Positions 2,151-53,118 of a DNA stretch of 53,118 nt are shown here, in pieces. The notes below the pieces were generated by a model, which saw only the letters and a program-made list of their open reading frames with translations, was not told where the DNA came from and made no database searches. The translations under genes and the position numbers were made by a program. Position 1 is the first letter of the stretch. Every line of letters starts with the position of its first letter. Origin of the DNA: Psammoneis japonica (taxonomy: Eukaryota); contig QPGO01000001.1 of the NCBI GenBank assembly GCA_008632985.1, positions 186,001-239,118 on the forward strand. The letters run 5' to 3'.

Positions 2151-4171
2151 CTAACTGTCACTTATTGTGAAAGCGTGCGCGGATCCGGACTCCAAACCAT
2201 TGACGTCAGCCCCCCGTGCACCAACTCCAACGACGCTTCCATTTGCCGACAAGGACACGGACCATCCATATTCATCACCTATAGCCTTGTCATTTAAAGG
2301 ATCTCCAACTTGCTTCCATTCGTCTGCATTGCTGTCGTGCTGAAAGATTCGAACCTGACCCGCAAAGACCAACCCATTGACGTCATGCCAACGACTTCCG
2401 ACCGCCAAGACATTCCCATTGCCACTCAACGACACTGAGTAACCAAAATCATCACCAGGCTGTTGTGTCAAGAGAGTTTGGCCACGTTGATTCCATGTCA
2501 AAGTTGAGCGGTCGTACGAATAAACCAAAACTCTCTCGTCGCTTCCAGGTGCACCTGCGGCAACGATCAAGCCACTGTCGTCAAGAGAAACCGACAATCC
2601 AAACTCACCATTAACGACTTGTCCATTGATTGGATCGCCCAACAGATCCCATTTTGACAAGGCAGAATTGTATTCAAACACCGACACTTGACCTGCATTG
2701 CTTCCACCCGAATCATGACCATCTGCTAAAAACGCCGACAATGGTTCCCTGCGCATTCAAGGAAACGGAAGTGCCAAAACGATCATTAGCAGCTTGGCCA
2801 ATGAGTGTTTGTCCGAGTTGGTTCCAGGATGAGGAGCCGCGGTCGTATTGAAACAATCGAACCGATCCAGAATCAGCTCCATTTTCCGTGTCATCACCGT
2901 AAGCTCCCACGGCAAGAATGTCTCCCGCGTCCGAGAGCGACACGGAATCACCAAATAAATCACCAGCGTCTTGTCCAAGAATGTCACTGCCGAGTTGAAC
3001 CCAACTATCCGATGCCGAGTTGTATTCAAACACACGAACGTGACCGGCATTCAATCCGCCACTGTCATTTTCATCCGCTCCAACCGCAAGAATTGTGCCG
3101 TCGCCATTTAACGAAACAGACTCGCCAAATTCGTCACCGCCGGCTTGTCCAATCAATTCTTGGCCAATTTGTGTCCATTGTTGGGTACTTCGATTGTATC
3201 GTTGCACAACAACATAGCCGGGATTGGAAGAAGAAAAGGTCCATTGATCCGCTCCAATTGCCATGACACTGCCATCACGAGACAAGGAAATAGAATTGCC
3301 AAACTTATCATATTCATCTTTGCCGTGTAAGGCTTGACCGACGGGCTGCCAATCGGCGGGAATAACGTTCATTTGAGCTGTAGTTGGAGATTGAGTGGGA
3401 AATAATGTAGGTGGTGTAGTTGTCGTTGGCGCTCCATCCTTGTTCTTTCTGTGGTTACTCGTAGACACAGCAACTGGGGCAGCAACTGCTATTGAAACAA
3501 CCACCAGGGCAACAACTCCAAGTGTAATAATGACGCGTTTGCCACGTCGTTTTCTATCACTGCCATTCTCAGAACCGTCACCATCACTCGCTCGAGCACG
3601 CTCAACTTGTGCAAGAGGCGCAAATCGATCATTCTTTTCTCTTGCCCATATGCCACCTTCTTCGATTTCATTGACTGTTGTAATGTTGTGCTTGCCTCGT
3701 CCACGAAGTACCTCGCCTTCCTCGTCGATAGCAAAGGCCCCAGGAGCCATATCGGGTATACGTCGCAGATCTAAATCGTCGTCTTCTTCTTCCATGTCTA
3801 CACCTCCCTCATAATCGAACATCCCCTCAACTTCGTTAAGATTACAATGATTCACCCGACTGTTCTGATTCTCATGCCGATTCTCATTATTTTCCTTCTT
3901 TGAAGCTGGTGGTTCTACATCACCGTCTTGCTCTTGCCTAGCTTTTTTGTCGCATTTCTGCTTTATGCCTCAACTCATTTTGATGAATGATTCGCTTTTG
4001 ACGTCTCTCACTAGCGGCTTCATCCGCCTCGTTTGCCTCTTGTCTCAAAAATTCTTCTTGAACCAAGTCTTGAGATGCTTCAATTTCCCGTTTCTCCTCT
4101 CCGTCTTCTCTCATGCTGTCAGTACTATCATACCGCTTAGTCGGTGAGTCCTCGCTAGTAGAAGGAGTCAT
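2151..4171 (-). CDS. FG-GAP (integrin-alpha-like) repeat beta-propeller single-pass membrane protein, copy 1; two +1 homopolymer frameshifts (~2728, ~3945)
   Basis: ORFs 3938..4204, 2713..3855 and 2151..2756 join into a paralog of 8222..10279. Repeated FGxSVSLSxDGxxLAVGA motifs and a TM segment VIITLGVVALVVVSIAVAAPV. Removing one base from each homopolymer run restores the frame. Confidence 0.85.
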
Positions 4172-5230: not shown

Positions 5231-5816
5231 CACAAGACTGAAAACACATGCACGCACCTGCATGATGTCCCCCAAGTGCAGCTGAAACACGAGGACCACA
5301 CCCCATGACTTGAGCGGGCAGGAGGTCTTCCAATTTGAGGGGTGTGGAGGAGCCCGCTTTCCCGGGTCATTGAGAAGGATCTCAGTCGCAGAGGTGCGAT
5401 CGAAATTGTTCCACCATTTTGTGGCTCCCTCTTTAGAATTGTGTCATTGGAACTCATTCTCTTGGACATGCTGTTTTTTTTTTTTTCAATTGAAGTGTTG
5501 CCCATGTGCATTGCGCCCGTCATTGAGGAGGATCTCAGTCACGGTTTCAATCCGAATTATCCCGCCATTTCGTAGCTTCCTCTCTAGAATTATGATGTTG
5601 GAACTAATTGTCTTGGACACGATGTTGTTTCCAAAAAGGTTTTCCTCAGAAAGAGAGAATGACAGTGGCTGGCATTCTGTGGCTGCACGGCAAGATTTTA
5701 AAAAACAATTTGAAAACATGGTGCGGTGGCCTTGGTTGAACCACATTCATTAACTTCCCCACTCACTCAAATCACAAACATGCACACACAAAATACAATG
5801 TTGTTTCACTCTCTTC

Positions 5817-6198
5817 TCAACATGCAATGTTTCCCTTTTTTGTTTCACACCACTCATTGACAAAACAACAAACAAGAAAGTACGATGCCGAAATGCTGAA
5901 ATCACACCAAACATGTCCACCAATGTCCTTCATGTCGGCACATTTGAGTGCCAGCAACCATCCCACACAAGTCGTCAAGATGGAACTGCCCCACACGGAC
6001 ACCGAATGGGCACACGGATTGGCCCGTTTGGCAGCCTTGTCCCACACAAACAATTGACAAATGGCCGATGCGAGATGCGCCAACGTGAAGACAATGGCAA
6101 AGGAATGTTGAATGGAACTCACACCCAACATTTCCACCGCCACCCATGCGGCAATGCCGGAAAACAACATGGAAAAGATCCAATTGTTGGCAGCCGGT
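5817..6198 (-). pseudogene. Truncated duplicate of the 3' end of the membrane-protein gene at 10815-12432, TpA-hypermutated
   Basis: Reads ...AHLASAICQLFVWDKAAKRANPCAHSV...GGHVWCDFSISASYFLVCCFVNEWCETKKGNIAC versus the source ...AYLVSAIYQLFVWDKATKRANPYAYSV...GGHVWYDFSISASYFLIYYFVNERYETKKGNIAY. Confidence 0.92.
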
Positions 6199-7369
6199 GC
6201 TGGAAGAGAGCTTGATGCTTCAGAATGTGCACTCAACATGCGCTGTGTCCTCTCCATTGTGGCAAAATGCAGAAAGTTGGTTCGCCAGGCTGACAGAGTC
6301 ATGGAGAAAAATGAGCATCTCAAGGCACTCAGAGACAAGGTTCCCATCCTGAAGGGATGCTTTGCTCTGGTCTGCCAAGCAGAGACAGCCAAAAATGCTG
6401 AACAATGTCAGGGCTGCAGGTTTGCACTCAAAATGACACAGCTTGAAATTAAGAAGAATGGAGCTCTCAGTGTCATTGAGGAAAGACTCAAGGGCTTTGG
6501 ACCACATTCCCACAGAGGGCAGAGCAGAGCGGATGCCATTTGTTGGAATGGTGATGTGTTGCAGCACAAGTCTTGCAGCTCATTGTGTGATCTCAAGAGA
6601 GCCATCAAGAAACCAGCTGCAAGCAACATTGGCCGGTGTCTGCATTTGGAAGCAGCAGACAAGAACATCAGCTTCCTTTTTGCATGGGTTGTTGATGGAG
6701 ATCAGCTTTTGAAAGGTTCCAAATCAGTGAAAAAACCACCTGCCCAGAAGGAAATCAAGGACAAATGCTCAAAACTCACCCAAGAGCTTGGTCAACTGCG
6801 CAAGAATTTGACCACACCAAAGGGCACAAAGGTCATTGTGAAGGTTGAACCACACTTTGATTGAGTTGCTGGGGCAATGGTTGTTGCAGAGATGCAGGAT
6901 CCACATTGTTTGTGGTTGTGAAAAAGCAGCATTTTGTGGAGCTCACTTGGCTCTGTTCTGATTACAACTGCAGATGCTGTCCTTCTTTCCAGAGCTGATG
7001 AGCCCTCCTTTGGAATCTCAAAGGCTTTCTGAGACAGATGACATTCCCTCCAAAATTTCTTGTGCAGATGTGTGCTTGCATTCACTGCTCAAATTGAGCT
7101 GGCTCTCTCCAGAGAGTGTTGCATTTCTTGCAAGAAAATAGAAACAAAAATCTGACAGGAATGGAAGGTGAATTGAGGCAAACTGTTCTTTTCCTTGCCT
7201 TTGTGGGAGTTGCAAATGACACACTTTCATGACCTGTGGCATGCCAGATGAAACACTGCCACAACAAAACCAGCACTCCTGAAAGAGCACAGCTGTGCAT
7301 TTTACAACCACTCAGTTTGGCATCAATCCATGTGTTGGTGAAGTGTTTTCTCCGATGCTGACAAGGACT

Positions 7370-7970
7370 CTCTGCCATTGGAGCATCCTTGTCATCCACC
7401 AACACTTTGGCAATGCCTTTGTGCTGTTCAGCAAAAAAGGCATCATGCAGGGTGACCCACTTGGCATGGCAGCTCATGGACTGGGCCTTCTCCCACTGGC
7501 CCAAGAGCTGAAGGAATGTTTTCAAGAGGCTTTCACCCTGTGGCATGCTGATGACTCTCCACTGAAGCAGAAAAAGCCAACACCCCACAGGATTTTTTCT
7601 TGACTCTCAAAGATGAAGGCCCCAAGCATGGATGCTGCACTGCTGACAACTCCAGTCCCAGGGTGCAACACTTGGAAATGCCAGAGCATGCTTTGGAGAC
7701 CTTGGCTTCACTGTCTGCCAAGGTGGCCACACCACCTTGGAGGCTTTGTTGGAGAGACAGATTCATGTGACCATTGGTTGATGGTAAAAGCCAAGTCATG
7801 GACCTCGGTCATTCAAGGACTCACAAAAATTGTGATTCGTCATCACCCACAGACTGCCTGCGCCAATCTCCAAAAGTCCCCACAACACCAGTGGCAGCAT
7901 GTCCAACATGTGGCAAAGGATTGTGATGAATCTTTCATGGAAGCAGAGCATGTGATCCAGCACCAATTGG
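7370..7970 (+). mobile_element. Degenerate non-LTR retrotransposon RT fragment (copy 2)
   Basis: SKKGIMQGDPLGMAAHGLGLLPLAQELKECFQEAFTLWHADD; duplicate of 1290-1900. Confidence 0.8.
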
Positions 7971-8221
7971 CAAGACCTTGGCTGATGACAACCCAAGACT
8001 GGCCCTGTCTGCCCTCCCAATCAAATTTGTAGGACCATCCATCCCTCATCCAATGGAGTCCACATCCCAAAACCACAAAGTGATTACATGCTCCCACATG
8101 ATGGACTCACTTCATGAAAACTACACCATGACATAATGCACGCGATGTACGGTCTACAAATGAAAGGTACTACAAAAACACAGTGTGACTGATGCAAGAG
8201 AATGTAACACAAAATGCATGT

Positions 8222-10279
8222 CTAATTGACATTTACTGTGAATGCGTGCGCGGATCCGGACTCCAAACCATTGACGTCAGCCCCCCGTGCACCAACTCCA
8301 ACAACGCTTCCATTTGCCGACAAGGACACGGACCATCCATATTCATCACCAATAGCCTTGCCATTTAAAGGATCTCCAACTTGCTTCCATTCGTCTGCAT
8401 TGCTGTCGTGCTGAAAGATCCGAACTTGACCCGCAAAGACCAACCCATTGACGTCATGCCATCGACTTCCGACCGCCAAGACATTCCCATTGCCACTCAA
8501 CGACACTGACCATCCAAACGAATCACCATCCTGTTGCGTCAAGAGAGTTTGGCCATGTTGATTCCATGTCAAAGTCGAGCGGTCGTACGAATAAACCAAA
8601 ACTCTCTCGTCGCTTCCAGGTGCACCCGCGGCAACGATCAAGCCGCTGTCGTCAAGAGAAACTGAACGTCCAAAACTACCAATTAAGACTTGTCCAGTGA
8701 TTGGACTGCCCAGCAAATCCCATCTTGACGGCGTAGAATAGTATTCGTACACCAACACTTGACCCGCATCGATTCCACCCGAATCATTCTCTTCTGCTCC
8801 AACGCCAACAATGGTTCCCTGCGCATTCAAAGAAACGGAAACACCAAAGGAATCAACAGGAGCTTGGCCAATAAGTGTTTGTCCGAGTTGGTTCCAGGAT
8901 GAGGAGCCACGGTTGTATCGAAACAATCGAACCGATCCAAAATCGAAGCCATTTTCCGTGTCATCCCCAGGAGCTCCCACGGCAAGAATATCGCCCGCCT
9001 CCGAGAGCGACACGGAAACACCAAATAAATCACCAGCTTTTTGTCCAAGAACATCGCTGCCGAGTTGGACCCAACGATCCGATGCCGAGTTGTATTCAAA
9101 CACACGAACGTGACCGGCATTCGTTCCGCCACTGTCATTTGCGTCAGCTCCAACCGCAAGAATTGTGCCGTCGCCATTTAACGAAACAGAATTGCCAAAA
9201 CTGTCGCCGCCCGCATGTCCAATCAATTCTTGGCCAATTTGTTCCCATTGTTGGATGCTTGGATTGTATCGTTGCACAACAACATAGCCGGGAGTGGAAG
9301 AAGAAGAGGACCATTGATACGCTCCAATGGCCATGACACTACCATCACGAGACAAGGAGACGGAATGGCCAAAATAATCAGCTGTAGCTTTGCCGTGCAT
9401 AACTTGCCCGACGGGCTGCCACTCAGCAGGAATAACGGTTACTTGAGCAGCAGTTGGAGATTGAGTGGGAGATAATGTAGGTGATGCTCTTGTCGTTGGC
9501 AATTCATTCTCATTCTTTTTGTTGTTACTCGTCAATAAAGCAACTGGGACAGCAACTGCTATCGAAACAACCACCAGGGCAACAACTGAAAGTGCTATAA
9601 TGAATCGTTTGCCACGTCGTCTTCTATCCTTGTCACCCTCAGAACCGTCACTACCCGCTTGGGCGCGCTCCACCGGTGCAAGAGGCGCAAATCGATCATT
9701 CTTTTCTCTCGCATATAGACCCCCTTCTTCGATTTCATTGACTGTTGTAATGTTGTGTTTGCCTCGTCCACGAAGTACCTCCCCTTCCTCGTCGATGGCA
9801 AAGGCCCCCGGAGCGATGTCGGGTATGCGTCGCAGATCTAGCTCATCTTCTTCATTGTCTACGCCTCCCTCATAATCGAACACCTCCTCTTCATCGCCAA
9901 GAGCACAATGACTTATCTGACTATGCTGGTTCTCGCGATGATTCTCATTATTTCCTCTCTTCTTTGATTTGTGAATCCTGCCACTGCGTCGGTTACTGTG
10001 ATTGTTTAAAGCTGATGGTGATTCTACCTGACCGTCTTCTTGCAAATGTTGTTGCTGCTCTCGTCGAAGTTTCGCATATGCCCTTAACTCATCTTGGTGA
10101 GAGATGCGTTTTTGTTCCCGCTTCCTGTTATTGTTGTGCTTGCTGTTAGAGTCGTCATGCGTCAAAGTGGAAGCGCCCCCCTTTTCTTTTTTCTTTTTGC
10201 TCTTGTTCGTTGCTTTCGTTTTGTGCTTCTTTTTGCTCGTCTCTTGTTTGGCAAGAGGTTTGTCAGAGTGATTCTCCAT
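8222..10279 (-). CDS. FG-GAP repeat beta-propeller single-pass membrane protein, copy 2 (intact 685-aa ORF)
   Basis: Charged N-terminus, PGAF motif, TM FIIALSVVALVVVSIAVAVPV, P/T-rich stalk, and six clear FG/YG-x-SVSL repeats. Confidence 0.9.
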   Translation of the reverse strand: MENHSDKPLAKQETSKKKHKTKATNKSKKKKEKGGASTLTHDDSNSKHNNNRKREQKRISHQDELRAYAKLRREQQQHLQEDGQVESPSALNNHSNRRSGRIHKSKKRGNNENHRENQHSQISHCALGDEEEVFDYEGGVDNEEDELDLRRIPDIAPGAFAIDEEGEVLRGRGKHNITTVNEIEEGGLYAREKNDRFAPLAPVERAQAGSDGSEGDKDRRRRGKRFIIALSVVALVVVSIAVAVPVALLTSNNKKNENELPTTRASPTLSPTQSPTAAQVTVIPAEWQPVGQVMHGKATADYFGHSVSLSRDGSVMAIGAYQWSSSSSTPGYVVVQRYNPSIQQWEQIGQELIGHAGGDSFGNSVSLNGDGTILAVGADANDSGGTNAGHVRVFEYNSASDRWVQLGSDVLGQKAGDLFGVSVSLSEAGDILAVGAPGDDTENGFDFGSVRLFRYNRGSSSWNQLGQTLIGQAPVDSFGVSVSLNAQGTIVGVGAEENDSGGIDAGQVLVYEYYSTPSRWDLLGSPITGQVLIGSFGRSVSLDDSGLIVAAGAPGSDERVLVYSYDRSTLTWNQHGQTLLTQQDGDSFGWSVSLSGNGNVLAVGSRWHDVNGLVFAGQVRIFQHDSNADEWKQVGDPLNGKAIGDEYGWSVSLSANGSVVGVGARGADVNGLESGSAHAFTVNVN

Positions 10280-10814
10280 GGTTGCTTAAAATCTGTTGTT
10301 GCATAAAGCGACATAGGAAGCAAACAGTATAATGCGGACACTTCGAATGGCACATGATGTATTGACTATTGACTGTGATGCGATGATGTATACTGTAAGA
10401 CTGTAAGGCTGAAGAAACGCGGATACACCCGCATGACGTCCCCCCTACATATAGATAGAAATGGACCCCGTTACCATCGCTACCACAACCTGTGTATGAG
10501 GCCTTCCGATTTAGGGGGTGGGAGGGAGCCCGCTTTCCCGGGTGCGATCCGAATTATTCCGCCATTTCGTCGCTTTCCTCCCTCTTTAGAATTATATCGT
10601 TGGAACTAATTGTCTTGGACATGATATGTTGTTTCCAAAGGTTTTGCTCACAAAGAGAGAATGACAGTGGCTGGCATTCTATCTACACGGCAAGATTTTA
10701 AAAAGCAATTTGAAAACATAATGCGGTAGCCTTGGTTGAACTATATTCATTAACTTCCCCACTCACTCAAATCACAATCACACACACAAAATACACTTTC
10801 GGCTTCCACTCTTC

Positions 10815-12432
10815 TTAATACGCAATGTTTCCCTTTTTCGTTTCATACCGTTCATTGACAAAATAATAAATAAGAAAGTACGATGCCGAAATGCTGAAAT
10901 CATACCAAACATGACCACCAATATCCTTCATATCGGTACATTTGAGTGCGAGTAACCATCCCACACAAGTCGTCAAGACGGAACTCCCCCACACGGAAAC
11001 CGAATAGGCATACGGATTGGCCCGTTTGGTGGCCTTGTCCCACACAAACAATTGATAAATGGCCGAAACGAGATAGGCCGAAGTAAAGACAATCGTAAAG
11101 GAATGTTGAATGGAACTGACACCCAACAATTCCACTGCACCCATGCGGTAATACCCGAAAATAGTATCGAAAAAATCCAATTGTTGGCGGCCGGTGGAAT
11201 ACCGGCTTCAAAAAAGACAAAGCATGTCAATCCAAACACGACATAATTGGTCAGAGTGGGTTGTGTAACGGGCGGAGCATCCGTCAGTAGTGCCAATAAA
11301 ATCCCCGCCAAACACGGTGCGACCCGTGCACGGAGTGTATTGGAATTCCGATTGGCCACCATGAGTCGTCGTTCTTCTTCGGGATTGATGCGTTTGCCTT
11401 CGAATTTATCGACAACATTTTGCAATTGTCGTACCGATCCCGAATTGACAAAGCGTGCCAAAAACAAGAGGAATGCAACGGAATTGCGCAAGACGTTATC
11501 GTTGGATACGGAAATACCCTTGCGTGTCAAATAACTCAATGCCCAATGAGCAATGCCATGTCCTGCGACACTGTACACTTTGATACTGGATAAAAAGAAA
11601 TCATCCAATCCCAATTTACCCAAATCACCCGTTTCACGCAATTTGAGAAGTGGCAGTGTAAACAACAAATCGGTATACAGCGACAACATGTGCGAATTGG
11701 TCTTTTCCTTTGTGGGATTGCTAATGCAAAATCCATCACAGACATAGCAGGGATCGAGTGTCCCAATATCCAATCCCGGTGGTACATCACACGGTCCCGG
11801 TGTACAGGGTCCTTGCAAATCAAAGGGTGTTCTCATTAACAGTAAAAAGGAAAGACAATCGTGACGTAATTGCCCAAATCACCCCATACAATATACTTGT
11901 CACGTTTGGGAATCACCACGGATTGAACATTGGTCTTGACATCTTCCAATGTTTCCGATACGGTTTTGCTTAAATCTTGTGTTTTGAATTTGTTCCAATT
12001 AAAACCACCACCATTGTTTGTAGTAGTAGAAGTAGTAGTTTGTCGTTTACGTTGATATTGAATCGAACTTCCGGTATCTTCTGTAACGTACTTGTTGGTT
12101 TCGGGTTTGTTATTGAACGTTGTATCACGACTACGACGATTCATGTTTTTGTTGTTGCGACGACCACCACTCGTAGTAGTTGTAGAAGAAAAACTTCCCG
12201 TATGAGTTCTGGGATTTTTATTTCGAGACTTGTTTTTGTTATTGTCATTATTACGTGCACCACCTCGTATTTCCGTAACACGCAATGATGCTGCTTGTCG
12301 GCGAGTAGATGACGTGTGGAGTGACGACGGTATGTTTGTCCAAGTAGTTGTACCGGCGGCGACACAAATCGGCAACAAGGCTACAAAGAATAACGCAAAG
12401 AGCTTATTCTTTATTCCCACTGCTTCTACCAT
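10815..12432 (-). CDS. Multi-pass membrane protein of unknown function (signal peptide; C-terminal GGHVWYD motif); two single-base frameshifts (~11845, ~11137)
   Basis: ORFs 11836..12432, 10973..11836 and 10815..11180 join. One extra T in the T-run gives VFPFLLLMRTP, and the duplicate at 5817-6198 supplies the base missing near 11137 (WVAVE). Confidence 0.75.
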
Positions 12433-38829: not shown

Positions 38830-40600
38830 CACCCATCACAACCACTGGCAGCATCTGAGATTTGTTCATGCGATGATGACGCCCCAACCATGAAGACCAA
38901 GCCTTGTCAAATGCTTCAAATGAAAAGGCACTGGCTTCCTCACCGCAAAATGATCCAGAGTCATTTCTTCAGCAGCCAGCTCGAACCATTTGAAATGCTC
39001 CGACAGCTGCACCACTCGAAGCCCACCCAGCGAAGCATGGCAAGTGCCTGCTTTGAAACAACAAAAGAGTGCCATTGGGATCTTCTTTGCTAGATGGGAA
39101 GCAAACTGATTGTTCCACCAAACCACAAAATGCATGACACCCAGAGTCACCTGATGGAAGTCTGCTTTGCCTGCACAAAATTCCGCCAAACAAAGAGGGG
39201 CTCGGCGGCAAAGGTTTTGAAAAGACAAAGTGCCACAGAGTGTCATTTTCTACATTTCAATTGAGTGCATGCACCTTGAGTTTTATGACCATGAACTGTC
39301 AAACAATGTGATGAGCTGGAACTTGGAGACAAGAAGAGCGTTGTTTGCAGGGGCGGCACCCGATGGAAAAGCAACTTTTTCTGGCTCATTGCTGTGAATG
39401 GTCTTTGTGACAACATCTCACATGAGAATCTTTGCATTGTTCTACAAATGTTGGAATGGGAGCATGCAGAAATAAACCTTGGCATGCCACTCTCTGATGG
39501 CCAGGGGCTGACAGTGGTCTTCCCATCCTCGACCATTGGGCTGCTGAGAATTGAGCAACAGCTGAAATGATTGTTTGTGTTTGCTTGTGATGGGTCAATC
39601 CATGTTGGCTCTCATTTTCTGTTGCTGCTGTTGCACTTTGCTTTTTCTTGCACAGTCATGAGTTCAGTCAAGAGCGGCACTTTGTTGATTGGAGATGGAG
39701 GCATTGTTCTTTCAAAAGCATCCCGGTCGGCACAATGCTGCATTTGGCAGAACATGAAAAGTGCCACAAGAGTGTGCAAACACACACCTTGTTCATTGCA
39801 GCATCCACAGCATGAAAAAAGGCACAACAAAAACTGTTTGGCATCAGCATCAAACCCCAAGTAAAATCTGCAGCCTTCCTGTGTCTTCTTTTGCTCCGCC
39901 AATTGCAGGTTTGATGATGCTGCTTCCACCATCTTCATGGATGGAATGCAACAGAGTTTTAATGGCCAAACCAAATTGCCTTTGGCAAGTGTCTTGAAGA
40001 TGCAGAACTCCATCACATCAATGAGCAAACTGTGACCTTGCAACAGCAAGAAACCTTGTTCAACAAGGTTGTGTTCATTGCCTTTTTGGTGTAATTTTTC
40101 AACCAAGCTTGGCAGCGTTGAGTCAAGCTCTGACACGTGATCACAGTGACAACTGTGATCCCAACCCATGGCATTGTCCACTGGCACAATGACCTCATGA
40201 ACCATGAAGGCTGGGATTCTTCTGCTTGATGTTCCAAACAGGTGCATCAAAAAAGAAAAAAAGGAAGCGAAAATGTTTTTGCTGCACAGGGGCCTCTGCT
40301 TGCAAGGCAGCTGTTGTGCCAAAGTGTTTTGGTCCACACTGAAAGAAGCTTTTGAGGTGCAGCCAGCGTGCTGCTTTGCATGTGCAAAAAGATGCTGCAA
40401 CTGCCATGCTCAAGTTGAAGTTGCCCCCTTCTTGTGGAAAGTCCATTGTGACATGTTCACAAGTGATGCAGCGCATGTGACGTCTCCATTTTTTCTCTCA
40501 CTCTTGTTGCACTTCACACACCATTTGTTTCCATTCCGCCTGTTTTCATTGTTCCAGAAGAGAGAGCTCTCACCTTGTGACTTGTGAGATGAAGATGTTC
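38830..40600. repeat. TpA/CpG-depleted decayed sequence, family not recognised
   Basis: Abrupt TA loss after ~38830; junk ORFs only. Confidence 0.5.
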
Positions 40601-41249
40601 TCACCCTGTTGTTGTGTTGCTCTTGTCATCTGGGTCACGTCTGATCAGAGCTTGGTGATCAAGTGCTGCACAGAACTTTTTGAGCCTTGTCTCAGTGACA
40701 GCGACATTCATTGTGATGCATCAGCAAGCAATGTGCAGACAGAGCAGAGCTTGATTTGGTCCAAGTTCTTGGGGTTTTGCTCTCATGTCCCCATGATTTG
40801 TGATGTGAACGGTGAATGTCATGCTTCCTTTGAGTGAAATGACAGTGTGAGTGTGTCTCAGCACAGTGTTGACAAGACCAGGTCACACCTTGGTCTGTCT
40901 GCTGAGATCCGAGCTGCTTGCACTTTGCTCCTGTTGTCTTTGCATTTGGAAATGTCAAGAGCCAGTGAGTCTGGTCTGTCAATTTCCAACTTCACAACTG
41001 TTGGGTCTTGTTGGTGTTGTCACTTGGTGTTGTTCCAAGCCAACACAGGCAAATCTGGCAAGGAAGGCAGAGTTTGCTGCATTGATTTCATGCATGTTTG
41101 TTCCAGCATGACAGCAGTGAATTTCAACTGTTTTCAGTTTTTGGCCAGGCCAGCCATCAGTGTCTTTCCTTTTGTCATGTTTGGGGTGACAAGCACCTGT
41201 GAGAAAGACGAAACTGCCGTTGCACTGATGACACAGATTGGAGCTGATG

Positions 41250-43080
41250 GAGAAGACAGAACTTTCCTCAAAAGAAAACTTTGGTCAGCTCACTCCTCCT
41301 GTGGGGAATGATGACTTGATCACATCCACCACCACTTGCGTGCCAACCGGTTGCCTCCTCTGCACATCACCCAGCTGTTTGAATTGGAGCTGCAACAGTG
41401 TTGCTCACACAAACTCCCAGCTCAGCTCATTCAGTCACATTTCCCACCACATTGCCAACCTTGATCACATGTTGGAAGCCAAGTGTGTTGAAAGTGTCAA
41501 CCAGGGATGTGAGAATTTCAAAATCAACAAAGACTGCCATGTCAAGATGCCCATGACAAAGGCATGCCTTTCTGGGCAGTGCCCATCTGAAGCAGAATGG
41601 TGCAAGACAGACCCCGGCTGCAGCATCTCTCCTTGCCAAGAACCGGGTGGAAAGATGAAAGGAGGCCATGTTGCCCTTTTTGTCATTTTGGGCTTTGTTG
41701 TCTTTGTTGCCATTTTCTGTGGCATTCATGCATGTCATGTGGCAAAGCAAAAGAAGCGTTGCCAAAAAATCTTTGCCAAGTGAGTTGCAGCAACAATGAG
41801 TGTGTGTTCATCTGACTTGTTCCAGACTTAGGTGCCCTCACGCGCGAAAAAATGACCCTTTTCGCATGAAACGCGCGGTCCACACTTGCGGTACCATTTT
41901 CGATAGTAAAAACATAACAATTTTCAAATGTGTTGTTATGGGTACATACAGAAAGGTCTTGTGCGTGTACCCATGTATTCGAAACTGTCGATGGACTCAG
42001 TTGTTAGTCCCTAAATTGTACCGCAAGTTGAGAGCTCTGTTTTCCGAGGAGCGATTTATAGATGTCTAAATGTGTGTAGAAACGTATAAAATATTATTCT
42101 TATATATAAATTAACCCTCCAACATAACATAATTAATCTTTGGTTACAATGCGCGAATACAACTTTGATTCAACGGATCGAATAAAACATACGTTGATTT
42201 ATAAGTTTCGGACGACGTGAGAAGAAGGGTAGCTCAGCCCACGCAATGGCGTCGACTTCGGACCATTTTTCACTGTTTAAGAGGCATAAACAATTGAGAC
42301 ACTTGAATCCGTCGAATATATTGAGGAAGTATACATGGTAATGGCAAAGAAATTGTCCTTAGAGGCAAATTGTGAGTGAATTGAGGCTCAATTGTTGTTG
42401 CTGACAGATTTAGTATTATTGTGCCGCGCTGCAACCTGTAACAAGCATTTTCACTATTGTTGTTGATGCCATAGACTATATCAAATACGGAGGTCCTCGT
42501 CATGACATTAAATTTTCCATAAGGCTGAAAAAAGTGGGCCGTCATGGTCACTGAAAGCCATGGCCGGTTTGGCTGTTTGTTTGTTCGAGTTTATTCTGTT
42601 TATTTTACTTATAAGCAATTAATATGATCAATATGATGAAATATGTACGATGTTGTATAAAGCATAAAAAAATTTTTTTCTGCGAAAAGGGGCATGTGCG
42701 CGCCACCTAAGTCTGGAACAAGTCATCTGCACACAGTTTGTCTCCCAAGGCTCTGGCATCAGAGAGTTCAAAAAGATTGATGAAACAGGCAGTGGAAGAA
42801 AAATCACAAAAGAGGAGCTCTGGGCATTTCTCAGCACTGGCAAGGCTGGAAAAATGTCTGAGTCTGATTTCAATGCATTGTGGCAAGTCATTGACAGCAA
42901 TGACAGTGGGAGTGTGGTGCGTTTTGCTTTCAGTCCAGTCTTGCACACAGGAAAAAATGCATTTTTTGGTTTCCCACAGTTTCTTGAAACTTTCAGCTTG
43001 CAGGATTTCCTTGAGTTCTGTGCATTCTTGGATGGCTGTGTGGATGGGTGCAATGCCGCGAGAGTGAATTGCACCATGTC
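41250..43080 (+). pseudogene. Decayed host-type gene for a membrane protein with C-terminal EF-hands, interrupted by a MITE
   Basis: ...EWCKTDPGCSISPCQEP...TM(VALFVILGFVVFVAIFCGI)...KIFAK*VAATMSV / SAHSLSPKALAS...FKKIDETGSGRKITKEELWAFL...DFNALWQVIDSNDSGSV...DFLEFCAFL. Removing 41814-42724 plus one TSD restores continuity. The 5' limit is uncertain. Confidence 0.7.
41814..42724. mobile_element. Non-autonomous DNA transposon (MITE-like, 911 bp) with 21-bp TIRs and 4-bp TSD ATCT
   Basis: GACTTGTTCCAGACTTAGGTG at 41814 and its reverse complement CACCTAAGTCTGGAACAAGTC ending at 42724. ATCT lies at 41810-41813 and 42725-42728. AT-rich non-coding interior. Confidence 0.9.
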
Positions 43081-43105
43081 TGTTTCCAAACTTTCCATTT
43101 GTCAC

Positions 43106-43381
43106 TGACAGAAAATGAAGGCAAATGGCAAGAATTCAAACAACAACTCCTTGCTGCTGTCCAAACAGCAGATGAGTCTCCGCTCAGAGACCGTCACAGG
43201 AGCCGAAAGACGTGCAAGTCGGTGCAATCGGGCTACTGTCATTGTTCTTGTGAGCCTTGTGGCTCGAAAGCAAACTACATCGCGCGTGAACGCGCGGAAC
43301 CAAAGCACACAAAACTGTGCACGGTAAACTAAACAGCGCGCGACACTTCGCGCGCACCCAAATCCTGTTCAAATCCTGTCA
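43106..43381 (-). repeat. 3' LTR (TpA-mutated copy)
   Basis: Direct repeat of 49942-50217; adjacent to a short purine-rich tract (minus strand AAACTGGGGAG, 43382-43392). Confidence 0.95.
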
Positions 43382-46300
43382 CTCCCCAGTTTGCTTGAGG
43401 AGCCACAGAAACAGATTCGACTTCGGATGGAATGAAGTTCCAGAACATGAGGGGGCGGAGAAGGTCCCAGATTTGGGAGCAACCCCAATGCTTGCTGAGA
43501 ATGTCAGCAGGGTTGCGGGAGCCTTCGATGAAGTGGAACTCAAGGCAACCAGAGGCAATTGCCTCACGCACACGGTGGAACGATGGTGCGGTGTGTCGCT
43601 TGTGTAACTTGGAGTGCGGGATGGTGGCACTGTCCACAGCCGACTTGTTGTCACCGAACATGTAACTGACGTTGCGGATCGGGACGCCAAGGTGGCGCAG
43701 GGTGATGCGCAGGTCGACAATCTGCTCAACACAAGTCCTTGCGGCAACAAATTCAGACCCGCAGGTTGCAGTCTCCATGGTGGCTTGTTTCTCAGAGAAC
43801 CAATCAGCCGGGAATTTGTTGAGGAAGTGGAGCATTCCCATGACAGAGCGTCCGGTGAGCATGCAATGGCACAAGTTTGCATCGACGCAGTGGGTGGCAG
43901 TGACGAACTTGCCAAGGGGCAGTGGAGCGTCCTTCGGGATCATCTCTTCTGCTTCACCATGCATGGAATGCATCCATTCATGGGCCGGAGCAGGGAGATC
44001 CGAACAGTCGGGTTCTTCCGTGCGAACGCGGAGAGCACCGTGTCGCATCTTGGAGAGGCACCCACAGACACGTTTGGCACGGTCCAAGTGGCCTTGACGG
44101 GGCGCAGCTCGGAAGCTAGAGAGTGACATGACGGCCGTGGTGATGTCAATTCGACCAAGGGACACTGCCCATTGGAGTGAACCAACAAGAGACTGGAACT
44201 TGTGAATGCCATCGGGTCCCAGCAGTTCGGAAGTGTCCAGTTCGGGGTGGTCACCCTTCTCTAGAGGTGACAGGGCGTTGGTGGCAGGTTTCTCCCCAAA
44301 CAGTCGGGCACAGCTGTCGACCATGCGCTCGATGTACTTGCGCGGAGACAGGCACAAGGTTCCGTCGGGTTCCCGGGAAAAGTCGCAACCCAGATGGAAC
44401 TCAATGGGTCCCGCACCCTTGAGCTTGAACTTGTGCTTTTCCGTGAGAGTGTCGACGAAAGATTGAGGGTCCTTCATGGCAATGGCGAGGTCATCCACAT
44501 AAATGGCAATGTGTTCACAGTGGTCGCCGTTCCTGCGCATCCAAATGTCGGGTTCGGCGCGGCAGGGGAAGAAGCCTTCAGCTCGCAGGCAGTCGGCGAA
44601 GCGCTCGTGCCAGCGGAGACCGGAGCTGCGCAGTCCATGCAGTGCCTTGTGGATGACAAGGATGTGTCCTTCGAGTTTGCCGAACTCGGGTCCAGCTGCA
44701 ATGTGAAGCTTCTCCTTGGTGGTGGCTTCAAGGCAGGCATTGCCAATGTCGGTGGCCCATGTCTCCAACTCGTTGAGTTCGGCCAGGAAAATCATCAGCC
44801 GAAGGCCACGGAGGGAGACTGCTCCGGAGCAGACACTGTCGACAGGTACGTCCGTGAGGTGCCCGTCGGCTGCGAGTCATGCCTTGTGGCGACCGTCGTG
44901 TTTCACGTCGCACACCAGGTGCACTCGGATCTTCTTGTGTCCCGCAGGAGGAGTGGAAGACTTGAAGGGCCCGCAGTCATGGAAGACTTCGTATTCGTCG
45001 AGTTGGTCCATCTCGAGATTAGTTGCGTCTCCCCACTTGCGGTTGCCGTTGCGTTCGTCTGGTGACATGGCGTGTTTGCAGTTCCGGGGAACTTCGTGTC
45101 CATGCTTGTAGCGAGGTGCAGTGCAGAAGGAGTGAAGCTTGGCTTGGTTGGCCATGCGAAATGGCTTCTTTTGGCGCCTCGCGATGGTGCGGAACCGCTT
45201 CCAGCCATCCGTGTCGAGGAGTCCGTTCTCTCGTGCATGGATGGCACAGGTGACGGGGTCGTCCTTGGCGATGATGGCAAGAGGCTCGGACGTGATCTCC
45301 CCACTTTCCCATTCAAGCATGATGTTGTAGCTGGAGCCTTTCCAGGTTGGGTCGTGAGGCTTCAGAGGTCCTTCGTGCGACACGATGCGTCGAAATTTCC
45401 AAACAGTGGTGTCTTCGTCTTCTTGCTCAATGTGATTCATGATGTCATTGCAGGCAAGGACTTCCTCGCATTCGTCATTGTTGACAGAGCAGACGAACTC
45501 AGTGAGCTCGGGATTGCCGTTCACTTTCCATTCGTGGTCTTCGACGGCCTTGACGATGCGAGCTCTGTGGCGTTGTCCGTCCTCTTGTGGCTGCATGAGG
45601 AAGGTACGTCCAATGATGTCTTGCGGATCGAAAACTGGCATCTTGGGTGTCCTGATCTCCCCATCAGGAGAGTCGACGGGGTTGTCGTCATGGCGAGATT
45701 TGATGATGGGTTCAGGTGGCTCCCCATCAGGAGGATCAAGATGCAGGTTTCGAACGGCAGGATCGGGGGCAGCGGATCGGACGTTGGACCGGCAGAGGAT
45801 CTTCTGAGTCTCGTCAGATAGAATCTTGAAGGTCATCTGGTGGCCGACGTGCTCAGCAATGCCAACGAAGCGTCCACGCAACTCATGGGATTCGGACGGC
45901 CAATCGGAGTCATCGAGGTGGAAGCACACGGGTTCCCACCAATGAATGCGAAGCAACGGGCTGATGTCCGGGGTGGAGCCAGTGAGAGTCTCGAGGGGCG
46001 TGCGCCAGTGGAGACGTGGGGACGCTGCATGGTTGAGCATGAAGCACACGTGCATGAGCGCCAGCAGCCATGCATGGGCGGGCGAACCAAAACGATCCAT
46101 GACAGTGTTCGCCATGCGCTTCACGGTCTGGTGTCGACGTTCGGCAAAGTTTTGGTGTTGCTGGTGAGGCTCACTTTGCCAGCTAGAGATGAAGAGGGCG
46201 CGCAGGATCCCGAGCACTTTGTTGCTGATCTCAACTTGAGCACGGTCGCCAATGAGTTTGGATGGGGCACCACGTTCACGGATCTGATCCTCGAGTGTGT

Positions 46301-48998
46301 TGACAAACTCTTTGTCCGTCTCAGTGCCACAGACGTCAGTGACGGTAGACTCGGTGCCAACAAACAGTTGGGCGCTGGTGCAACCAGAGTCGACGGCCGG
46401 GGTGTCGGCATGAACGGTGTCAGTGGCGATGGGCTCGTTGCGGCGGTGCACATTAAGGGCGGGGTTGGGTGATTTGCAGGCCTTGCGAAGGTGTGTGCCG
46501 GCGGGCATGCGGGCGCACTGCGTGGTGCAGTCAAAAGTACGACGGACCGCATCGGCAGGCAGGAAGCCAAAGCAAGGCCGAAGAGACTCGAAGGGGGGGT
46601 CCTTGGGCTGCACAGTGCGCTCCGGAGGTGGAACGTCATCGCCCTGGGGGCCAATCGCATGCAGATGACACTCATAGAACACGTCGTTGTTCGGAATGAG
46701 GTGATCATCGAGGGCGGACGCGTGATTGGCAGACAAGGAAGCGGACAAGATGGTCTCGTTGACAACGACACGATGACGGTAGTTGCCGCATTCATCAAAC
46801 AGGTTGGCAGTGGGATCGTCCAGCAGGTCAGAGATCGCGTCGCACCACTGGTCGTCGTCAGTGACAGAGTGATCGAGGACGGAAGGGTCCCATGTGTCAT
46901 CACCGGTGAGGATGACATGGGGCAGGGTGTCCCATTCGGCGTCAGTGTAAGGTCGCATGGCAACACAAGGCAGGCCAGCCTTGATGTCAATGGGGATGAC
47001 ATAGCCATCAGGAGTGGCAATGCATTGCAAGCCGTTGGGCACCTTGACAGAGCGATCGTTGACATCCTGTTTGCACCATTCGAGCTGGCCGCAGGAATGG
47101 ATGGTCTTGCCCTTTCCCGTGCATGCGTGCTGATGGAGGATGGCGATGACGGGACCACGCTGGGTCTCAATGACGGCACCAGCGGTGACAATGGGGATGT
47201 CCACCAATTGATGATCGTCAATGCCCTGAACGTCGACTTGGCGAGAGGTGCGTGCAATGACGCGAACGTCGTCGCCAGCAATGCCGCCGTTGGCCCCATG
47301 ATCGACCAGAGCGCCAGTGCGTGTGGATCGATGAGCAGAGGCAGAGCAAATGACATTGTGGTTGTCAACGCGGCGGCAAGTGCGGCCGTTAAGTTCCATG
47401 TCATCTGCAGAAGCTGGCGGGGCAGAGGAAGCGGCGGATGGCCCCGGTCAACTGGCAGTGGGGGCTTGGTTAGGAGACAACAGACGTTGCAGATCACCGG
47501 GTGGCAGTGGCTTGCGCTTGGTGAGGTGCGCCAGGATGGGATCATCCGAAGTGGCGTCCACATGTGGGGCGGAGTCACCAAAGTCAGCAGGAGTCGTGTT
47601 GGACAAGTTGACATCACCGTCACTCCCAAGGCGTTGGTCGTGAAGGTTGGCCGTAACAGACTCATGGCAGTTGCTGGCTCGCGGGTTGCGGGGAGGTGGA
47701 CGAGAATGCTCAAGGATGATCGCCTTGGAGGAATCGGGCAACGAATCCCAGAGCCGTTGGTGGTCAGGAGGGAGACGTCTCCATTGGACACCGGCGAGGC
47801 TGGGACCGCGGGTGCAGGCAGCATTGGCTTGAAGGACGTCAACGTCGCTGTCAATGTCGTAGAACACATCGTCGGACGGTTCCTCGGAGCAGACGTCGTG
47901 TGCGTGTGTGGCGCGTCGGGGAGCTCGAGGTGTCGTCTTGGGTTGAAACGTGCTGTCGTGCTGAGCTGCCGCGGAGAGGAGCAAGCCACAGTGTTGATCG
48001 CATGTGAGGCTCTTGCCACTCTGCGTGCGATGCTGATCAGCTTGGTTCTTGACAGCACGGAGTTCCTCGACAGGGTGCACGGCATTCTCGAGCATGACGC
48101 GCTTCTGTCCTTCAGAGAAGTGGTCACTGGCCGGGATGAGTGCCTCGCACTTGCGCAACTGATCTTGCCAATGAAGGATGAACCCGTGGGTCGGACCTTT
48201 CCAAGTGCCATCACCAAGACGCGCGGTGGTGAGGTGCGTGAGCAGGGTGGAGGACTCGACAGATGCGCGGGTGGAGGCAAGCGCGCACTCAGACAAGGAG
48301 CGGCAGACGGTCTGTGCGTCAGAAGACCCCACATTTTCGCGAATGAGAGCCTTGCCCTTGTCGGTGAGAAGGATGCGTTCGAAGACGGCGAACATGCACT
48401 TTTGCTGTTCAGCAAAGAGCAGTTTGTCTTCGGGGCTGGTCGGTTTGTACTGCGAGTCTAGAATGCACTCGACGTCTTGGGCACGGGCTTGTGCCACAAG
48501 TGAGGTGTGCCAAGTGTGCCACTGCTTGTCGGATTTGAGAGCCGTGAAAGCGGTGGGGTCACGCTTGATGCCTCGCTTGAAGTCCCGCACCGGGTCGCGT
48601 GCCTCAGTCGGGTTGGTGACATGTGGAGGTGCAAGGGGTGAGCTGCCGATGGACACGGAAGACATGCAGTCGGGGCTGAGGCGGCAGGCAAGGAACTCGT
48701 CATGCGTGAACAAAGAGGAGTCGTTGGCAACGTCAAGACCTTTGTGTGCTTTGACAATGCACAGACTGGCCAGTGCTGCCAACATGTTCTTGTGACCACG
48801 GGGCAAAGGGATTGCATTAGCGCCGTTGTCGCACTCAAGCGAGTCGATTTGGGACGGCATGAACGTGAACAGTTCCTGATGTGAGTCCGTGCCGTCTTGG
48901 GCCAAAGCCAAACGAAGAGGACTCCCAGCACCTTGGGCAAGCACGGTTCCAACCACGTGCTCGAAACCATCGGTTTGTTGCTGACGAGTGAGAACCAT
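43329..48998 (-). pseudogene. gag-pol polyprotein in a single frame, with two TGA nonsense codons (47448-47450, 44877-44879) and pervasive Tyr->Cys/His
   Basis: Gag FKRGIKRD; protease LVDHGANGG; integrase ATDT..., QQHQNFAERRHQT; RT KHDGRHKA*LAADGHLT, TDIGNACLEA, YVDD; RNase H DANL, GSEF, GDNKS, NPADILSK. The ORF pieces share one frame. Confidence 0.93.
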
Positions 48999-49926
48999 GG
49001 CAGACAAAAAAAATGGTGTCAGGACAATCAATTCTGGTTGGGAAGCGAAGGTAGACTCGAAACTTGGGTGAGAACAGACTTGACTTGAAGTGGACTTGAC
49101 TTGAAATCTTGAACTGTCTTAAAATCAGAAGTTGCCGGGCTTTGTTATCCCGTTCGTTGTCAAGTGCTAAACTTCCCATCCGGTCCGCAGAGTTGTGCCG
49201 GCACGTCCGAACCCGCAGCTGGCGGCGCTTTGGGTTGCTTGCGAGCGGAGCAGCGGGTTGTAAACCCCTGCAGGCAAGCTGACCAGAGGTGGACAAGACC
49301 CCCGAACCGTTCTCATTTTACATCGGTTGGATTTCCCGATCAGGCTGGCCAGTTGACGTGGGCGTTGGGCGCTGTGGACGAACGAACAAACGCGGGAAAG
49401 CACCCTCGCCCCAACGCAGGCTGCAATCACGGCTGCTTGCTCTCACAGTCGTCCTCGTGGACCTAGTAGAACTGTAGAGCACCAGCAGTCCGGGGTAGAT
49501 CAGGTGCAATGGACTCGGTGTGCTTGTAGAGTGGCAGCAAAACCGCAGTCCGAAGAGTGGGTACAGGTTCTTGGCCGTGAAGATATGTATATATATATAT
49601 GTCTTCAGCGACGAAGATCCTTGAATATGTAGGGTTCTTGACCGTTAACCGATGAATAGGTATATCAAGGGATGAGGATCAAGGATAGACTTGGATATGA
49701 CCGTTGAATGTATGTCTTCAGCGATCAAAGGTTGTATAATCAATCCAGATATCCAGCGGTAAGGAGACTTGACGGTGACGTTAACTTCCTGCCGATGCCC
49801 TGGTATTGAATGCGTGTAGACTTGCCGATGTATGTAGAATATATACGGAGGTCCACGTAGAATTAAAAATAGCGTCGTTGGTAAATCAACGACGACGATG
49901 GCGGTTGCTCAATGGGTTGACAATGA

Positions 49927-49941
49927 GCAAGACTGTTAATC
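49927..49941 (-). promoter_or_regulatory. Putative primer-binding site complementary to a tRNA-Asn(GUU) anticodon arm
   Basis: Lies immediately inside the 5' LTR. Minus strand reads GATTAACAGTCTTGC; plus strand GA-CTGTTAA-TC resembles an anticodon stem-loop. Confidence 0.55.
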
Positions 49942-50217
49942 TGATAGAAAATGAAGGCAAATGGCAAGAATTCAAACAATAACTCCTTACTGCTGTCCAA
50001 ATAGCAGATGAGTCTCCGCTCAGAGACCGTTACAGGAGCCGAAAGACGTGTAAGTCGGTATAATCGGGCTACTGTTATTATTCTTGTGAGCCTTGTGGCT
50101 CGAAAGCAAACTACATCGCGCGTGAACGCGCGGAACTAAAGCACACAAAACTGTGCACGGTAAACTAAACAGCGCGCGACACTTCGCGCGCACCTAAATC
50201 CTGTTCAAATCCTGTCA
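49942..50217 (-). repeat. 5' LTR (retains 16 TpA)
   Basis: Direct repeat of 43106-43381, followed by the TSD. Confidence 0.95.
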
Positions 50218-51386
50218 GTCACATTCAATTGCAGAGAGGAGTGCCAGTGTGCTGACTCAAAGGATGGACTCAGAGTTTTTGTTGCAGAAAGACCTTGGAG
50301 GCATTGAAGAAAACAAAGAAGAAAAAGGATGAGATTTTGCATGGTGACTTGTGACATCCTGTGTTCCTCCATCCTTGGTGCTTGCATGTGTTGCAGCAAA
50401 AATTTGCAAATGGTGTCTGTTGCATGAGACAATTTTTGGAGGCAACTCTGTTCATTGGCTTGCTGGAGGCAAGGAGTCTTCATTGACAATGCCGCCTGAA
50501 GCAAACCCAAATGCAAAGATGACACCCAAAATCACACAGCCATCCCAGCAACGTGTGAGAGAGAGCACACTCAACTGAAAACATCAAAAAAAGAAGCATG
50601 ACTTCCTGACAAACACTGTGTTTTGCAATCAAAACCAACTGGGACAAGTGCTCCATTCCAAAAAAATGTTGAGTCATTTGATTGACTCCTGTCACACCCA
50701 AGCAACCTCTGTGCTGTTGACATCAAAACCAAGCATCAGGGTGTCAGGCAGGCTGTCACTTCAAAAGATGGCACACATGGAATGTGACAGTGAGAAGAGC
50801 TTTCAGTTGTTCTCCAAAATTTGATGTCAAATTTGTGCAAGTCATGACTCGTGCATGACCTTTTGCATTGACAATTGTTGGTGCCTTGCTGTTGCTGACA
50901 GAGAGTGGGCTTTGCTCTTGGCAGTGAGTCCAATCATCTCACAATTGTTCACCGCCATTGTTGGTCAGCCAATTGACCAGAACAACCTGGATTTTGACAG
51001 GAGTGTCACGTGTCTTCTCTTGCAATTGAGGCATGCAACAACAATGTGTGAAGCATGTCATTTTTCTTTTGGACAAAAGCATGAGAATGAATGACAATTT
51101 TGTAGAGACTGCAGCAGAACTGGTCATGACAGACCACTGCACGCTAGACCAAATGCAGACCACGAATCTTCTTTAAATAAAATGACGTGGCAGATGAATC
51201 TTGCAACAATCTTGGTTTGCATTTGTGTGTTCATGAATGCCACAAAATGTGCTTTGACGCTTGCTGTTTGCTCATGACGTCTCTGTCACGCCAGGATTTT
51301 TGGTGAGCCAACAACAAACAACACATGCACCGCAGTGCACACAGTGGTGGCTTGCACTTGTTTGTTGTCAACTTGTCGTTTCACAC

Positions 51387-53118
51387 ATGATGTCAAACAC
51401 CAATGAAGGTTCATCTGTCCTTTTGTCCTCAGATCATGAGGCAGACAAAAGTGATGACAATGATTTGTCAAGCTCCCAGCAAGAGCTGTTGGAAAACAAT
51501 GACAATGCAATTTCTGATGCACACGGAGATGACAGTGGTGCAACTGACTCTGCTCAGTTTACCTCCTCTCAACCAGCGCTTCCACCCCCTCCCTCTCTTA
51601 AAAAGGTCTCAATGCCTTCATTTGTGAACAATTGTGGGGAGCATTCTGAAGCACACCCTCTCAAAGAGCAGAGCAAGGAACTTCTCAAGAAGAGCTGGTC
51701 AGCTGAGGATCTCACACAAGAGATCATTAAACTTGCTCCCACAGAAGAAGACATCTCCAATGCCAACAAGAACCAACGATCTCCAGATTCTTTCAAGACA
51801 AAGCGCAAGCTTGTGTTTCCTGTTGGTCGTCACTTTGCCAGCTGCAAGCAGTTGCACCAAGCTGCCATCCAGTTTCTTGACATGTGGGCCATTTCTTGTG
51901 TTCATGATGGGAAGCAAATTGTTTGTCACTTCAGTGATGCCAAGTCAGATGCGTGCAAAGAGAAAAAAAGAAAGCCTTTGGATCAATTGCAAGGCAGTGG
52001 CAGCCGCAGGTGCCAGAAGCAGTCCATGAAAGAGCAGCGCAAATGTCCATTTGTGATTCGGCACTCTCTTGTCAACAAGCATGTCAACCCTCAATTGGGT
52101 GCAACAAAACCAGGCATTTTTCACCTTGTGAAGATTGCCGCAGCAAACTGTCACCATTCTCATGACCTCAACACGGTTTTCCACCGCAAGGCAAAAGAGA
52201 CCAGTGGCAACCTCCAACCAAATCTTGCTTGTCTTGAGTCAGTGATTGATCGGATTGAGTCAAATCCATCAGTGGAGCCCAGGGAACTGCGGCCATTGTT
52301 GCAGAAGCACATGCCAGTCCATGCCTCAATGGATGCAACCTTCATAAAAAATTTCAAGCATCGTGTCCAAACATGGTTGATCAATGCAGACCCCCAGGAG
52401 CGTCAGGTTGCAGCTCAGTTTGCAGAAGACCTGGCAAAGAAATGCCGAAAGAGTGCAGCTGATGAATTCATCATCAGTGACTCAACCATTGCTCGAAAGA
52501 ATCTACATGCCATGCTTCGACGTGTGATGCAGGAGGACTCATCCACTTGGAATGCACTTCATTTTCTTGAAGCCATGAAAGAATCAAACCATGGATTTGA
52601 CTTCCGATTGATGCGTGATGACAATGGCAGACCAGAAGCAGTTTGCTGCATGAACCTTGAAATGAAACGTGACCTCAAGAGGCACAGTGATGCACTCCAC
52701 CTAGATGCTCAGAAGCGACAGCACAACAAGGCTGGTTGGCCACACATTGGTCCGGCAGTGAAGGACTCTGAGATGAAACCTCGTGCTGTTGCAGAAGGCC
52801 TCTGCCTGGAGGAGGATCACAAGCACTGTCATTTCATTCTTGAGTCCATGGAAAGCATCATGGAAAACAAGTGGCAAATCTCAGATGTTGGGATCATCTT
52901 TGCTGACCAGCACCCAACCAGTGGCTCCACACACTTTCAATGAGGTTTGGCCAAACCCTGACAATTTTGGCATTTTCCATTGTGAAAAGATGAAGGACTG
53001 CCTCCGGATAATGCTGCAGTGCAGCACAGAGGAAGAATGGGCCCATGCATTCAATGAGGCCAAAGTGCATGTTGCTGATGATGCTCAGAAAACCTGCATT
53101 CTGCGAGACATTTTCTCT
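51387..53118 (+). mobile_element. Mutator/MULE-like transposase pseudogene, runs off the window end
   Basis: GFDFRLMRDDNGRPEAVCCM...RHSDALHLDAQKRQHNKAGWPHIGPAVKD...IIFADQ resembles the MULE/FAR1 DDE core, with an upstream KCPFVIR...HHSH motif. No Tyr in the 560-aa ORF; frameshift near 52920. Confidence 0.75.

Follow-up and report, generated by a model that had tools for sequence, protein, structure and literature searches.

Mobile DNA of Psammoneis japonica loses its TpA dinucleotides by mutation in place, domain by domain, and much faster than it loses CpG. We analysed 53,118 nucleotides of contig QPGO01000001.1 (assembly GCA_008632985.1, 91.4 Mb in 597 contigs; positions 186,001 to 239,118), hereafter the window, in which eukaryotic gene islands alternate with repeat blocks and the gene content looks diatom-like, and in particular the Ty1/copia long terminal repeat (LTR) retrotransposon that occupies 43106–50217 on its minus strand. 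In such elements TpA and CpG loss run simultaneously at very different speeds, and TpA loss is switched on by the domain rather than by the insertion, after which a fast and a slow process operate together. We are highly confident of the pattern and its kinetics, namely in-place, domain-limited and distributive transitions that exceed CpG loss 25- to 40-fold. The element is delimited by a pair of 276-bp TG...CA LTRs and, on either side, by the 5-bp target duplication GTCAC, and carries RVT_2 at the 3′ end of a single open reading frame (ORF).

The interior of the element (43400–49400) has 34 TA, an observed/expected ratio (o/e) of 0.13, and 442 CG (o/e 0.89), being TA-poor yet CpG-rich, as a preliminary description of the sequence had stated. 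The same description held the older flanks and the other islands to be short of both dinucleotides, which is also the case: the left flank (42725–43105) has 0 TA and 3 CG (o/e 0.00 and 0.16), the right flank (50219–51100) 0 TA and 5 CG (o/e 0.00 and 0.12), and five other blocks show o/e values of 0.04–0.09 for TA and 0.15–0.29 for CG. Gene regions have values of 0.54–0.68 and 0.93–0.97, and genes are spared, a duplicated FG-GAP gene pair showing no one-way TpA loss (10 vs 12). What had been overlooked is that the 5′ untranslated region (UTR) and the 5′ LTR of the element, at about 49500–50217, retain TpA, with an o/e of 1.04 at 49400–49940 and of 0.82 in the LTR. The two in-frame TGA codons had been ascribed to scattered CpG losses, and indeed CpG is kept at these positions in 17 of 19 copies of the family (47448–47450) and in 16 of 19 (44877–44879). 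A dinucleotide scan of 487 segments of 500 bp, spanning 246 kb around the site, found TpA o/e below 0.15 in 214 segments, of which 120 have a CpG o/e below 0.3 and 30 one of at least 0.7; none of the 487 combines a TpA o/e of at least 0.4 with a CpG o/e below 0.45, that is, none is CpG-depleted with its TpA retained. The path of TpA against CpG is L-shaped, in agreement with the preliminary description.

The direction of change was read from 19 full-length copies of the family, the window's included (20 of 761 candidates from a genome search were scored, and one split copy was dropped), all of them with matching target duplications. TA, TG and CA co-occur at 139 positions and all four states at none, so that the ancestral state is TA; in intact-versus-hit pairs the loss of TA is one-directional (89 vs 1 and 23 vs 0). 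The LTR pair of the window's element differs at 12 of 16 TpA and at 0 of 20 CpG sites (p = 1.5e-6), all 12 differences being TpA losses, and the 19 LTR pairs together show 141 one-sided TpA losses, 36 TG-versus-CA differences, 23 CpG differences and 8 other substitutions. TG or CA outcomes common to several of the 19 copies are not in excess over permutation. Since the LTRs of one copy differ and outcomes are independent between copies, the TpA changes arose in chromosomal DNA after insertion. As 177 of the 208 LTR differences are of the TpA type, dating by LTR divergence is wrong in such genomes unless TpA sites are removed.

Per copy, 56–84% of 161 TpA sites and 2.9–7.6% of 447 CpG sites are lost in the interior (127 of 161, or 79%, and 20 of 447, or 4.5%, in the window's copy). 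The dose ratio is about 25 (range 19–36 over the 19 copies), and 37 in the domains hit in a younger copia family, which bears out the earlier proposal that the TpA process is the faster one. The further statement that TpA loss precedes CpG loss stands only as regards speed; the two are not sequential, young copies already showing CpG loss ~13-fold above background (0.0145 private losses per site per copy vs ~0.001 for other G>A) and the TpA and CpG doses being correlated over the 19 copies (r = 0.67, p = 0.002). Private A>G outside TpA amounts to 0.002, and each transversion class to 0.0001–0.0003, per site per copy. The CpG-specific C>T excess points to deamination of 5-methylcytosine (5mC) as the probable slow clock, which would account for the enrichment in the same domains and is unable to yield A>G at TpA. 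Diatom transposons are described as CG-methylated, with DNMT5, in the text of PMC9998398.

The TpA changes are transitions to TpG or CpA, on both strands, with non-transition states in 8 of ~4,560 former TpA calls. Strand runs are absent (1105 vs an expected 1101 in the 19-copy family, 336 vs 340 in the younger one), and so, after context fitting, is strand bias (1.11, 95% 0.92–1.32, and 0.95, 0.77–1.10, respectively); a raw bias of 0.74 vs 0.49 disappeared once context was fitted. TpA loss does not depend on the distance to CpG (rho −0.04, p = 0.64), in line with the earlier suggestion that it is distinct from CpG decay. The lack of runs, of strand bias and of a CpG-distance effect, together with the few transversions, tells against a general error-prone polymerase as well as processive editing of single strands. 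In both copia families a C or T as the next 3′ base raises TpA loss 2.4- to 4-fold over A, TAC and TAT being preferred targets over TAG and TAA. TpA is mutated >100-fold above other A, and hit zones have an off-target A>G rate about 2.7 times that of cold zones (33/6552 vs 9/4811, p = 0.007), mainly before C or T.

The role of the domain is clearest in the younger family, with 13 full-length copies, of which three (L147, L148 and L152) were dropped as probable chimeras: their target duplications are mismatched and their right flanks are in common with other copies, as in assembly chimeras or recombinants. Five of the 10 retained copies are TpA-hit along only part of their length, with 589 of 768 TpA lost in hit zones (77%) and 24 of 492 in cold zones (5%), and the domain edges are graded. 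Because age is uniform along one copy yet its zones differ to this extent, it is the compartment that decides TpA loss. Private CpG loss is about 3-fold higher in hit zones (37/1894 vs 7/1129, p = 0.0025), which supports the earlier view that the two processes share compartments, although the coupling is not strict; a first within-copy test, on 8 copies including the three later dropped, had given p ~1e-8. Family F0, taken from its reverse transcriptase (RT) region as TpA-immune, was rejected as such, its full-length copies being partly hit.

The same switch-like behaviour is seen in a non-coding family resembling miniature inverted-repeat transposable elements (MITEs), for which 40 of 133 candidates were scored and 39 rows analysed, with 41814–42724 as the near-unmutated reference. 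Core TpA loss is 0–7% in 31 of the 39 rows and 80–96% in the other 8, with none between, and many intact copies are embedded in erased flanks. In hit rows CpG loss amounts to 6–39% and private background changes are more numerous (mean 3.4 vs 1.1, p = 0.005), and one such row combines 80% TpA loss with CpG lost at only 2 of 36 sites. The notion of TpA loss as a clock that starts at insertion thus fails on both families, parts of one age having lost 77% or 5% and MITE copies being bimodal. As a separate observation on this high-copy element, 13 of 30 otherwise intact copies are hit at the TpA site at position 16 and 12 of 30 at that at position 79, the first two of the element, against 0 of 30 at the equivalent site of the opposite end, which indicates a one-sided edge effect.

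In the window's own family the 5′ region is spared in 12 of 19 copies (~19% of TpA lost vs 70%), and CpG loss is low there (7/528 vs 252/5364). Several points weigh against a common domain for the two processes, or against its exact placement. In the other 7 copies the 5′ region has lost ~70% of its TpA but CpG at only 5 of 308 sites, so that the TpA/CpG coupling is not strict; the CpG enrichment in the younger family hangs on a single copy, falling to 16/1383 vs 5/983 (p = 0.12) without L157; and the partly hit copies were chosen by RT score, which biases domain position, with 3 of the 13 dropped for mismatched target duplications. The element copy L019 shows the reverse sparing, its 3′ LTR, adjoining gene-like DNA, retaining TpA while its 5′ LTR is hit.

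The signature is of the kind recently described in Bigelowiella natans (bioRxiv 10.64898/2026.01.13.699255), the only other alga in which it has so far been measured. As reported there, TpA hypermutation strikes integrated viral DNA in two viral regions, at ~1000 times background per generation in mutation-accumulation lines; TpA-poor genes are enriched in transposable element domains, and an ADAT2-type deaminase is proposed, not shown. Both systems convert TpA to TpG/CpA only, on both strands, in foreign or mobile DNA regions only and with genes spared, and neither is always active, the bimodal MITE copies and partial domains being analogous to line-to-line variation in B. natans, though not an identical test. 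They differ in target, viral regions there and LTR and inverted-repeat elements here, with TA o/e below 0.15 in 214 of the 487 segments, and in measurement, a rate per generation there and here the ratio to CpG within copies, the 3′ context and partly hit copies. The words "CpG" and "diatom" are absent from the main text of the preprint, and our literature searches, whose coverage excluded most subscription papers, found no diatom report of a TpA-loss signature. The present results extend TpA hypermutation from one rhizarian alga to a second, probably distant lineage, to ordinary transposons and to a large scale, and, relative to the preprint's main text, add the rate against CpG decay, the 3′ context, the lack of processivity and the domain-wise onset.

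Once inserted, mobile DNA is targeted in contiguous domains that measure from hundreds of bases to several kb. Within them individual TpA sites, on either strand, turn into TpG or CpA through transitions alone, with TAC and TAT preferred over TAG and TAA, and the dose is 25–40 times the CpG dose there, which leaves young targets TA-poor and CG-rich and old ones short of both. Such domains probably consist of silenced, CG-methylated chromatin, in which the slower 5mCpG decay would start as well. The most likely chemical step is that an enzyme of the TadA/ADAT fold deaminates the A of TpA to hypoxanthine, which replication reads as G. For the whole chain, from domain targeting through TpA transitions and silenced, CG-methylated chromatin to adenine deamination, we see the balance tipping slightly in favour; the chemical step taken by itself has about an even chance.

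The off-target rise in A>G and the TadA-like context count for adenine deamination. TadA-derived editors, as described in the text of PMC8989541, make A>G nearly without transversions, favour a 5′ T and a 3′ C and disfavour a 3′ A; unlike the process seen here, they are engineered and act in a single-strand window, and their 5′ T preference is far weaker. The genome carries a TadA-like gene (L089), an ADAT2-like gene (L092), two editase-domain genes (L136, L138) and an endonuclease V gene, and an AAG-family glycosylase was not found in a genome search that is a weak test; none of the candidates stood out in enzyme look-ups across the genome. Other observations tell against this assignment: the sequence is equally compatible with attack on A or on the opposite T; the >100-fold TpA specificity compares with a preference of 25–52% for 5′ T in the TadA editors (PMC8989541); the deaminase genes found resemble ordinary tRNA or nucleotide enzymes, the ADAT2-like gene among them being of a kind that serves as ordinary tRNA editors; and the deaminase ORF pieces scanned, in which introns were not resolved, showed no chromatin-binding domain. 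A further locus, L091:313-1785 (minus strand), joins a deaminase domain with DIOX_N/2OG-Fe(II) oxygenase in one open frame and is probably metabolic. More tentatively still, one might picture a dedicated natural TpA-specific DNA adenine editor that the spread of silent chromatin recruits and that defends the whole genome against transposons, being shared with distant algae of the stramenopile–alveolate–Rhizaria (SAR) group such as Bigelowiella, sparing promoter-like 5′ LTRs and leaving a two-rate record that dates silencing and not insertion. A natural DNA adenine deaminase with TpA specificity would, if true, be of wide interest.

A different chemistry acting in the same domains and with the same kinetics is the strongest competitor, possible though clearly less probable than adenine deamination: a DNA-modifying enzyme could mark TpA, the mark decaying or miscoding as 5mC does, or a glycosylase could remove A, with a translesion polymerase inserting C. 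The near-absolute specificity for a palindromic dinucleotide, the equality of strands and the lack of runs resemble methyltransferase-style recognition, the genome has 27 matches to genes of the C5-methyltransferase family, and diatoms possess DNMT4, related to fungal RID, to which the text of PMC9998398 assigns no known function. Against it, no TpA-modifying enzyme was identified, adenine methyltransferases and TET/JBP genes lying outside the search; bypass of abasic sites should yield transversions, at odds with the rarity of non-transition states. Duplicated C5-methyltransferase genes (L077–L079, L083 and L086) are themselves TpA-erased, with 0–5 TA per kb vs ~25–47 in the other matches.

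The repeat-induced point mutation (RIP) of ascomycetes makes TpA from CpA, mutates both paired homologues and leaves strand-coordinated runs. Like it, the present process hypermutates one particular dinucleotide by transitions, disabling transposon copies where they lie and leaving adjoining genes alone; it runs in the opposite direction, TpA being lost and not created. RIP-like pulses, in which mutation is set off now and then, for instance at sex, by homology pairing of repeats and TpA is lost in bursts, would fit the bimodal MITE copies, the similar loss in all 19 copies (56–84%) and the intercept above zero (0.61 ± 0.17) when TpA dose is set against CpG dose, which rate differences among TpA sites can also produce. 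We nevertheless consider them improbable: one partner of a pair is affected alone, both in the LTR pair (12 vs 0) and in the duplicates 5570–6085 and 10570–11085 (TpA losses 23 vs 0, CpG 7 vs 1), near-identical MITE copies stay intact, strand-coordinated runs are lacking, domain edges are graded, and the B. natans target is, by the preprint's main text, single-copy and mutates in clonal lines (bioRxiv 10.64898/2026.01.13.699255).

Very improbable is an error-prone polymerase of the Pol eta type working in repair patches at damaged methyl-CpG, which would make both losses one process, in keeping with the rise of both CpG loss and off-target A>G in hit zones. Such polymerases favour the WA motif, and this idea is largely refuted by the rate after A (0.0023 A>G, no higher than the 0.0025 and 0.0020 after C and G); the absent dependence on CpG distance and the transversions, equal in hit and cold zones (5/14736 vs 3/10021), also speak against it. 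Non-CpG G>A is equal between these zones too (13/6290 vs 6/4081). An origin outside any genomic process, through codon bias, editing at the reverse transcription stage or sequencing and assembly error, has in its favour the three chimeric-looking copies among 13, and is rejected for the main pattern as the least probable of all: codon usage is no explanation since TA across codon junctions of the copia frame is likewise depleted (12 observed vs 93.8 expected, p ~2e-26), LTRs within a copy differ from each other, hits also fall on MITE copies, which are non-coding, cold zones have private mutations at the hit-zone rate, and a 1890-nt contig of run X1, which may be the source sample and so verifies the letters and is no independent sample, matches the TA-erased block 39823–41712 with 0 differences, so there is no base-calling artefact where this is testable.

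Table. Features of the element and its surroundings in the window.
Feature	Position	Strand	Evidence or remark
Left target-site duplication, GTCAC	43101..43105		Empty-site contig of run X1 links 43100 to 50218
3′ LTR, TpA-hit; 4 TA remaining, 20 CpG retained	43106..43381	-	
Single gag-pol frame, Ty1/copia, interrupted by two TGA	43329..49118	-	RVT_2 (PF07727), E = 3e-18, in 43332-44876
In-frame TGA at a CpG position (KA*L of the preliminary description)	44877..44879	-	
Second in-frame TGA, CpG position	47448..47450	-	
Part of 5′ UTR spared by the TpA process, as in 11 further copies of the 19	49500..49941	-	
5′ LTR, TpA intact, 16 TA	49942..50217	-	
Right target-site duplication, GTCAC	50218..50222		
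Old host DNA on the left of the insertion, 0 TA, 3 CG	42725..43100		Continuous with right flank at empty site (run X1)
Old host DNA on the right of the insertion, 0 TA, 5 CG	50223..51100		Dinucleotide counts; empty site (run X1)
Non-coding inverted-repeat, MITE-like element, 911 bp, 4-bp duplication ATCT; TpA and CpG intact	41814..42724		Empty site in run X1
Low-copy repeat with an ORF of 561 aa, intermediate class (o/e 0.05 for TA, 0.32 for CG)	51258..52943	+	Dinucleotide counts, copy search

Contigs of run X1 skip 39849–41683, 41814–42724 and 43106–50217, and each of these blocks thus seems confined to a single haplotype. That one haplotype lacks the insertion was rejected as proof of its youth, the erased block 39849–41683 being missing from one X1 contig as well. 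A tandem duplication of ~6.1 kb (window 1–4000 and 6100–10300) contains a non-coding block that is erased in both copies, with 23 TG-versus-CA differences, next to the spared FG-GAP gene. The 561-aa ORF, tentatively MULE-like, found no match in a Pfam scan, and its repeat has three further copies at 92–94%.

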